Shown here piece after piece: positions 7,639 through 8,597 of a stretch of 24,000 nucleotides of DNA. How positions within the stretch are numbered: position 1 is the stretch's first letter; each line of letters begins with the position of its first letter. The stretch lies in assembly GCA_041598955.1 (NCBI GenBank), contig JBFHXN010000003.1:1-24000 (forward strand), read 5' to 3'. This stretch comes from Desulfuromonadales bacterium (GTDB lineage: Bacteria > Desulfobacterota > Desulfuromonadia > Desulfuromonadales > JBFHXN01). The notes under the pieces are model-generated. The model saw only the letters and a program-made list of their open reading frames with translations. It searched no databases and was not told where the DNA came from. Made by a program: the position numbers and the translations under genes.

Positions 7639-8498
7639 AGTTCCCCGGCCCCCTCCGCCGCTGGCGCCTTGCCAGCCAGCTTCTTTGCCTGGCCGGTTTT
7701 CTCTGGCTCTTCCTGCAGACCGAGTATCGCGGTCTGGACGAGCTTCCCTACCCCGTCAGCCTCCTCTTCCGGATCGACCCCCTGGCCGCCCTGGCCGATC
7801 TTCTCGCTCCCGGCCCCTTCGGCTGGCGGCTGCTCTGGCCGGCCCTGCTCCTTCTGGCCCTCACCGCCCTGCTCGGTCGCTTCTTCTGCGGATGGATCTG
7901 CCCCCTGGGGACCACCCTGGACGGGGCCGGGCGCCTCTTCGGGCGCGGGGAGGGCCCCGTGCGCCCCGTCTGGCGGCGGGTCAAGTACTACCTGCTCATC
8001 TTTCTCACCGCCGCCGCCCTCTTCGGGGTGCAGCTGCTGGGGGTTTTCGATCCCCTGAGCATCTTCCTGCGCACACTCACCGTGGCCTTCTACCCGGCCT
8101 GGAACCTGGCCCTCAACGGAGCCTTCGAGGGGCTCTACGCCCACCTGGTCCCCCTGCTCTCCCCCCTGGCCGACAAAGCCTATCCCCTCTTCCGGGACCA
8201 CCTGATGGCCTTCCATCAGCCCTATTTCACCCTCGCCCTCTTCACCTTCGCTCTCTTTCTGGTGCTGCTGCTGCTCGAGAAGGTGGAGCGGCGTTTCTGG
8301 TGCAAGAACCTCTGCCCCCTGGGGGCCCTGCTCGGGCTCTGCTCCCGGGGCGCCCTGCTGCGCCGGGAGCCCTCCCGGCGCTGCCAGGGGTGCCGCTCCT
8401 GCGCCGAGCTCTGCCGGAGCGGTGCGGTCACGGCCGAGGGGCGAAGGCCCGAGGAGTGTCTCCTCTGTTTCGATTGCACCGGCTTCTGCCCGGAGTAG
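7635..8498 (+). CDS. NapH/NosH/MauN-like integral-membrane 4Fe-4S polyferredoxin (ends at an in-frame TAG)
   Basis: The GTG at 7635 overlaps the DUF362 stop (GTGA). Several hydrophobic helices are present. The motif CGWICPLGT and a second WCKNLCPLGA are typical of NapH/NosR-type membrane domains. Two ferredoxin motifs follow: CQGCRSCAELC and CLLCFDCTGFCP. The 287-aa length is NapH-like. Confidence 0.75.
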   Translation: MKFPGPLRRWRLASQLLCLAGFLWLFLQTEYRGLDELPYPVSLLFRIDPLAALADLLAPGPFGWRLLWPALLLLALTALLGRFFCGWICPLGTTLDGAGRLFGRGEGPVRPVWRRVKYYLLIFLTAAALFGVQLLGVFDPLSIFLRTLTVAFYPAWNLALNGAFEGLYAHLVPLLSPLADKAYPLFRDHLMAFHQPYFTLALFTFALFLVLLLLEKVERRFWCKNLCPLGALLGLCSRGALLRREPSRRCQGCRSCAELCRSGAVTAEGRRPEECLLCFDCTGFCPE

Positions 8499-8597
8499 AA
8501 GGTCCGCTTCCGGTGGAAGGGGGAGGCTCCCCCGGGAGTCGATCTCCCCCGGCGTGGGGTCCTGGCGGCTCTGGCCGGAGGAATCCTGGTCGCCCCG

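Follow-up and report, generated by a model that had tools for sequence, protein, structure and literature searches.

The polytopic polyferredoxins described by Tooke et al. (eLife 2017; PMC5449189) possess five transmembrane (TM) domains, cytoplasmic Fe-S clusters, and a twin-arginine (RR) motif positioned directly before the fifth TM domain, while the C-terminus carries four periplasmic 4Fe-4S clusters, making these proteins in effect fusions of NapH and NapG. In the case of the MLMS-1 protein, Sec inserts the first four TM domains and Tat then handles the fifth TM domain together with the C-terminal domain (PMC5449189). The same two domain types are found in E. coli and Wolinella as NapH, with four helices and cytoplasmic 4Fe-4S clusters, and NapG, a Tat-exported periplasmic protein with four 4Fe-4S clusters; there, the two are separate quinol dehydrogenase subunits of the periplasmic nitrate reductase, whereas in the locus considered here they are natively fused. 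As predicted from its sequence, this locus constitutes a single gene, whose product of about 513 aa is a polytopic polyferredoxin belonging to the described dual Sec/Tat family, and the copy analysed here is disrupted or mis-called.

The gene lies in a 24,000-nucleotide stretch of DNA from a Desulfuromonadales bacterium (assembly GCA_041598955.1, contig JBFHXN010000003.1), hereafter the window, and its features and those of its upstream partner are the following:

6715..7638, + strand: DUF362-family upstream partner gene (307 aa; Pfam DUF362, E = 5e-49), with an N-terminal twin-arginine signal, MDRREFVRR...
7635..8495, + strand: NapH-like membrane module, codons 1-287, recognized by domain models and hydropathy and colinear with the MLMS-1 polyferredoxin
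8496..8498, + strand: in-frame TAG, codon 288, which is GAG (Glu) in conspecifics
8499..8555, + strand: startless linker from the last cytoplasmic Fe-S motif to the twin-arginine motif R306/R307 (nt 8550-8555)
8556..8612, + strand: fifth transmembrane segment GVLAALAGGILVAPVARIA, about residues 308-326, predicted to be Tat-dependent from hydropathy and alignment with the MLMS-1 fifth domain
8598..9176, + strand: mechanical 192-aa ORF, NapG-like periplasmic module with four 4Fe-4S Cys motifs, recognized by domain models

The TGA that ends the DUF362 gene shares bases with the GTG that starts the polyferredoxin gene (GTGA at 7635-7638). Translation of the frame 7635..9176 yields 513 sense codons, a single internal stop, and a terminal TAG at 9174-9176. 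The internal stop is the TAG at 8496-8498 (local sequence TGC CCG GAG TAG AAG GTC), which follows the last cytoplasmic Cys motif by one residue and precedes the RR motif by 17 codons. A mechanical ORF list divides the frame into ORF 7635..8498 (287 aa, GTG start) and ORF 8598..9176 (192 aa, GTG start); an initial annotation of the window had read these as two ORFs in the same frame interrupted only by the TAG, and the ORF list and the translation agree on this point. The annotation had also called the nucleotides immediately after the stop, 8499-8597, coding-like and startless. Third-position G+C across this segment, given there as about 80%, is 78.8% (26/33), somewhat below that of the flanks (89% in the upstream part, 95% in the downstream part), and a codon scan confirmed that it holds no ATG, GTG, or TTG in frame. 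The only near-cognates are weak CTG codons at 8562, 8571, and 8586 and an ATC at 8583, all located 3' of the RR codons 8550-8555; the interval from the TAG to the RR motif, scanned in frame for ATG, GTG, TTG, CTG, and ATH, holds none of them.

The assignment of the two halves as NapH-like and NapG-like was borne out by domain models, the N-terminal half matching Fer4_5 and NapH/MauN and the C-terminal half matching NapG/MauM models (NapG NF007012, E = 5e-31; MauM/NapG TIGR00397, E = 6e-27), with four Cys motifs evident in the translation. Two CX3CP motifs are present in the NapH-like module together with a pair of CxxCxxCxxxC(P) 4Fe-4S motifs, and the second member of this pair ends at CP-E287. 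In a Kyte-Doolittle scan, hydrophobic segments 1-4 occupy about residues 12-30, 66-89, 117-138, and 196-216, the RR motif residues 306-307, and a fifth segment residues 308-326; by this simple hydropathy measure, as distinct from a topology predictor, an even number (four) of TM segments thus precedes the RR motif and a single segment directly follows it. The hydropathy peak of the fifth helix is 1.92, as compared with 2.0-2.4 for helices 2-4, and Arg residues follow the helix (ARIAPAEDR...LLRPPG).

An intact conspecific protein, P0001, was compared with residues 1-364 of the polyferredoxin (PFD; Q1NSB0) of delta proteobacterium MLMS-1, taken from the supplementary file of PMC5449189. BLASTP aligned the two with 37% identity over 358 columns (E = 1e-56), spanning residues 7-326 here and residues 9-360 of MLMS-1, and colinearity is kept across the last Cys motif (CPEEKVRFRW vs CPQRLISFRW), the RR motif, and the fifth domain. 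In both proteins the N-terminal membrane module is NapH-like and bears cytoplasmic Cys clusters, the RR motif stands directly before a moderately hydrophobic fifth helix, and the C-terminal module is NapG-like and has four 4Fe-4S motifs. The RR motif and hydrophobic segment in which the initial annotation saw a Tat signal or membrane anchor correspond to the internal fifth TM domain of the described Sec/Tat family, predicted to be Tat-dependent. In contrast to the MLMS-1 protein, the copy in the window is interrupted by the TAG at codon 288; the loop separating the two cytoplasmic 4Fe-4S motifs is also shorter here, as is the linker leading to the RR motif, and the fifth helix falls at about residues 308-326 instead of 338-359.

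The fused state extends well beyond these two proteins. Searched against proteins, the joined sequence gave 7770 matches at E <= 1e-10, and the best 120 of the 7770, which were inspected, are all 496-561 aa in length and cover 94-100% of the joined query. At the DNA level, tblastn with one genome per species listed matches at 80 species-level loci (best listed match, 71% identity to the query; none of those listed from the same species), drawn from several phyla and from lineages that include Desulfuromonadales, Nitrospirota, Syntrophales, Acidobacteriota, Latescibacteria, and Verrucomicrobiota, and at all 80 a single continuous segment runs across both modules. An RR motif (KR in a few) is present at the aligned site in the 80 listed loci, typically as DL(S/T/G)RR and about 18 residues past codon 288. 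The column at codon 288 itself is variable (N 37, Q 11, E 8, G 6, S 5, K 5, T 3, D 3, R 2), and no special amino acid is therefore encoded at this site. Alignment with orthologues, put forward in the initial annotation as a check, accordingly returned fused genes throughout, with a variable residue at codon 288 that is Glu in conspecifics; the arrangement that the annotation had named as contrary to its interpretation, two genes with the second starting upstream of the RR motif, occurs at none of the 80 listed loci (0/80 split there). Two of the 80 listed loci carry lone in-frame stops elsewhere in the gene, namely a TGA in L009 (nt 6520-6522, query residue 181) and a TAG in L021 (nt 6747-6749, residue 470), which represent sporadic pseudogenization or error. 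A lone in-frame stop in genomes of this kind is therefore part of a background of a few percent, about 2-3% within the polyferredoxin family.

The 80 listed loci also reveal a conserved neighbourhood. A DUF362 homologue is found upstream on the same strand in 75/80 and is directly adjacent in 66/80, and the pair formed by a DUF362 protein with a Tat signal and a polytopic polyferredoxin is strongly conserved across phyla. This conserved pairing suggests that the DUF362 protein is the redox partner of the polyferredoxin, whose periplasmic module would then act in electron transfer to the Tat-exported DUF362 protein. Within the library searched, no paper names DUF362 together with any of the companion terms. 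Identification of the two halves as NapH and NapG proper, subunits of a nitrate reductase, was considered and rejected: scores fall far below the curated NCBIfam cut-offs both for NapH models (NapH/MauN, 70 bits vs 213; PRK09477, 69 vs 234) and for NapG models (PRK09476, 108 vs 269; MauM/NapG, 95 vs 179), no nap context emerged among the window genes scanned, where other Nap-family models had no match, and the conserved neighbour is DUF362. Upstream of the DUF362-polyferredoxin pair, the region 1319-6703 is a gene run limited to the closest relatives (8-11 of the 80 listed loci), in which three NosD-like beta-helix proteins alternate with proteins carrying CarboxypepD_reg-like domains, accompanied by a DUF3467 protein and a short OpuAC-like binding protein.

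Comparison with the same species is most direct at the stop codon itself. Four conspecific MAG contigs (L001, GCA_041590915.1; L002, GCA_041623135.1; L003, GCA_041591515.1; L004, GCA_041589715.1) align with the window at 99.2-99.5% DNA identity over 2-15 kb, and all four have G at the position of T8496, giving GAG (Glu); L001, L002, and L004 read GGAGGAGAAG where the window reads GGAGTAGAAG. The closest protein, P0001, is 99% identical and 513 aa long, and its 90% protein cluster comprises nine members, of which six are full-length at 513 aa, one is truncated by its contig, and two are fragments. The seven conspecific proteins (six full-length and one partial) all read CPEEKVRF, with Glu at codon 288, and the fragments of 287 aa and 192 aa (the latter P0122), both encoded on a contig of 24,260 bp, match the window ORFs 7635..8498 and 8598..9176. 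T8496 is thus a singleton G-to-T change, GAG to TAG, private to the window, and it is the only window-private change within the polyferredoxin gene. Because conspecific DNA has GAG, the interruption is not the native state, a conclusion that derives from direct comparison as opposed to chance statistics. Among JGI metagenome contigs, a 33-mer with either G or T at the site had no match and a 21-mer had three chance matches in unrelated DNA with no protein similarity, such that neither allele was sighted independently. With relatives fused and conspecifics reading GAG, the first of the three explanations offered in the initial annotation, one fused gene of ~513 aa with a recent nonsense mutation or sequencing error, is the one that held, and we are highly confident that the TAG reflects either a nonsense mutation or a base error, in a gene whose normal state is fused.

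The second explanation, amber recoding or suppression, supposes that the TAG is decoded by pyrrolysine or a suppressor tRNA and that the full-length protein is made. The sequence 3' of the TAG is indeed fully intact and codon-biased, as this would require, and two independent GAG-to-TAG alleles occur in conspecific genomes (the second is described below), which would be tolerable if amber codons were partly suppressed. However, the TAG is not conserved, conspecifics having GAG and the column varying across the 80 listed loci, and TAG serves as an ordinary terminator in this genome: it ends 4/15 of the mapped window genes (L001 gene calls transferred onto the window), among them the polyferredoxin gene, whose C-terminus …DDWV-TAG coincides with that of the conspecific proteins. 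The 24-kb window encodes no tRNA with a CUA anticodon, tRNA-Arg(CCG) being the only tRNA there; an Rfam scan of the window returned nothing besides this tRNA, no pyl-like domains were present among the window genes scanned, and the predicted RNA fold 3' of the TAG was no better than that of shuffled sequences (z = -0.95). A TAG that is private to one contig, in a variable column, and identical to a normal terminator speaks against read-through, and we regard recoding as extremely improbable.

With the TAG taken as a nonsense change, its predicted consequences follow from the order of the modules. The G-to-T transversion would turn Glu codon 288 (GAG) into TAG, and translation would end after the NapH-like module, leaving a complete NapH-like stub; the NapG-like module would not be made with a Tat signal or anchor. 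Since there is no start codon between the TAG and the RR motif, the NapG-like half cannot gain an export signal. The GTG at 8598 is codon 322 and lies, as the initial annotation had noted, inside the hydrophobic segment of residues 308-326, such that ORF 8598..9176 taken alone lacks the RR motif and most of the anchor, and initiation there would produce a cytoplasmic fragment without most of the anchor. The periplasmic electron-transfer arm, which presumably serves the Tat-exported DUF362 protein, would be lost, and only traces of full-length protein might be left through basal misreading of UAG.

It is at this point that a fission in progress has to be weighed, in which the stop would un-fuse the Sec/Tat protein, yielding a functional NapH-like protein alongside a NapG-like one translated on its own. 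The stop falls almost exactly at the module boundary, one residue past the last cytoplasmic Cys motif, a GGAGG precedes GTG 8598, and other bacteria make NapH and NapG as separate polypeptides, an evolutionary relationship between fused and split forms being assumed (PMC5449189). Yet the startless interval between the TAG and the RR motif would deprive the downstream product of its Tat motif, and a start at GTG 8598 would remove about 14 of the ~19 residues that form the anchor helix. The GGAGG (8577-8581) is the nearest to GTG 8598 and stands 16 nt from it, and because this spacing is too long the GTG is without a good ribosome-binding site. No listed locus is split here, as noted above, and a cytoplasmic NapG-like fragment could not reach a periplasmic DUF362 partner. 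Independent initiation of the downstream half was accordingly rejected on the lack of a start before the RR motif and the poor ribosome-binding-site spacing to GTG 8598, and the lack of any possible start before the RR motif likewise speaks against the third explanation in the initial annotation, a downstream protein that has lost its export signal, as a working product. Fission is very unlikely in our estimation, and we attach a similarly slight probability to the broader proposition that the TAG is real and tolerated, whether through partial amber suppression in the population or as a first step in the splitting of the NapH-like and NapG-like modules. Were the TAG tolerated, the two GAG-to-TAG alleles in conspecific Fe-S genes would hint at a relaxed cost of amber codons.

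Our reading remains that of a natively fused gene hit by a nonsense mutation or a base error, and the question then becomes which of the two it is. Private differences among the five contigs comprise 60 synonymous, 16 nonsynonymous, and 2 nonsense changes (77% synonymous), whereas all possible single-base changes in the same genes would be expected to give 26% synonymous, 72% nonsynonymous, and 2.7% nonsense. Because the observed differences are dominated by synonymous changes and thus filtered by selection, the assemblies look accurate and the private differences are mostly real, with errors contributing little. The other mapped window genes contain no internal stop or frameshift, and the sole length difference relative to L001 is 1 bp at 9446, in an intergenic region. 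The second nonsense singleton is a GAG-to-TAG change in L001 at window site 10988, in a ferredoxin gene at 10845-11141 (- strand; L001 12408-12563); it hits a small 2x[4Fe-4S] ferredoxin gene that adjoins a CdhD-like gene and shortens the product from 98 to 51 aa.

The alternative is that the T arose in sequencing or assembly, as a consensus error or through the assembler's choice of a minor strain variant, and that the gene of the organism has GAG and is uninterrupted. In short-read libraries, G-to-T is the classic artefact of oxidative damage. The T is private to one contig and every conspecific sequence has GAG or Glu, and the polyferredoxin gene shows no further decay, although this equally fits a very young mutation. 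L001, from the same accession series, shows a like change in another gene (GAG to TAG, by G-to-T on the coding strand), which could mean a shared artefact process; related MAG contigs (JBFH...) bear MEGAHIT-style k141 names, and L008 states a coverage of only 9x. A fixed knockout would moreover be somewhat unexpected, because the family is under strong purifying selection and the DUF362 pairing is conserved. Against an artefact, apart from the excess of synonymous changes and the integrity of the remaining mapped genes, G:C-to-T:A singletons are not significantly enriched for amino-acid change (6/17 vs 12/61, p = 0.20), a comparison that is uninformative either way, and k-mer assemblers discard single-read variants. 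On balance, an artefact or minor variant is a substantial but lesser possibility, and we lean slightly towards T8496 being a real, very recent loss-of-function allele. In either case, the feature resembles the ordinary nonsense polymorphisms, pseudogenes, and base errors of MAGs, in which one private base change places a stop in an otherwise conserved gene; the sole distinction is that this stop happens to sit at a module junction.

Two further elements of the window were noted alongside the polyferredoxin gene. A palindromic intergenic element of about 120 nt is present in two copies, one just after the polyferredoxin stop (9185-9305) and the other before the DUF3467 gene (about 4740-4865); it has 25-nt arms with 84% complementarity (AGGCTGCTGAAAAACCC...GGTTTTTGAGCAGCCT), it matched no Rfam family, and it looks like a REP- or MITE-like repeat. 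In the comparison of L003 with the window, a cluster of changes falls within the first copy (9234-9318). At the far end of the window, 18128-23843 on the - strand holds an alternative complex III-like cluster, unrelated to the polyferredoxin stop, with the following members:

23310-23843, - strand: c-type cytochrome
ORF 19866-23168, - strand: large ActB-like protein with molybdopterin-like and 4Fe-4S domains
within 18568-20511, - strand: NrfD-like membrane subunit
18128-18568, - strand: ActD

For annotation, the fragments of 287 aa and 192 aa should be recorded as a single disrupted polytopic polyferredoxin gene rather than as separate proteins, the 192-aa 'ferredoxin' being an artefact of gene calling. 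As an ordinary nonsense change or base error, private to one member of an already described family, the feature matters little beyond annotation. Its location at the Sec/Tat module junction nonetheless illustrates how such fusions are constrained, in that a stop codon alone cannot split them, because the downstream half would require a start codon of its own ahead of the RR motif. Should the T allele be real, the conserved electron-transfer module formed by DUF362 and polyferredoxin would be missing its periplasmic arm in this strain, and the pairing of these two proteins is the more useful by-product of the analysis.
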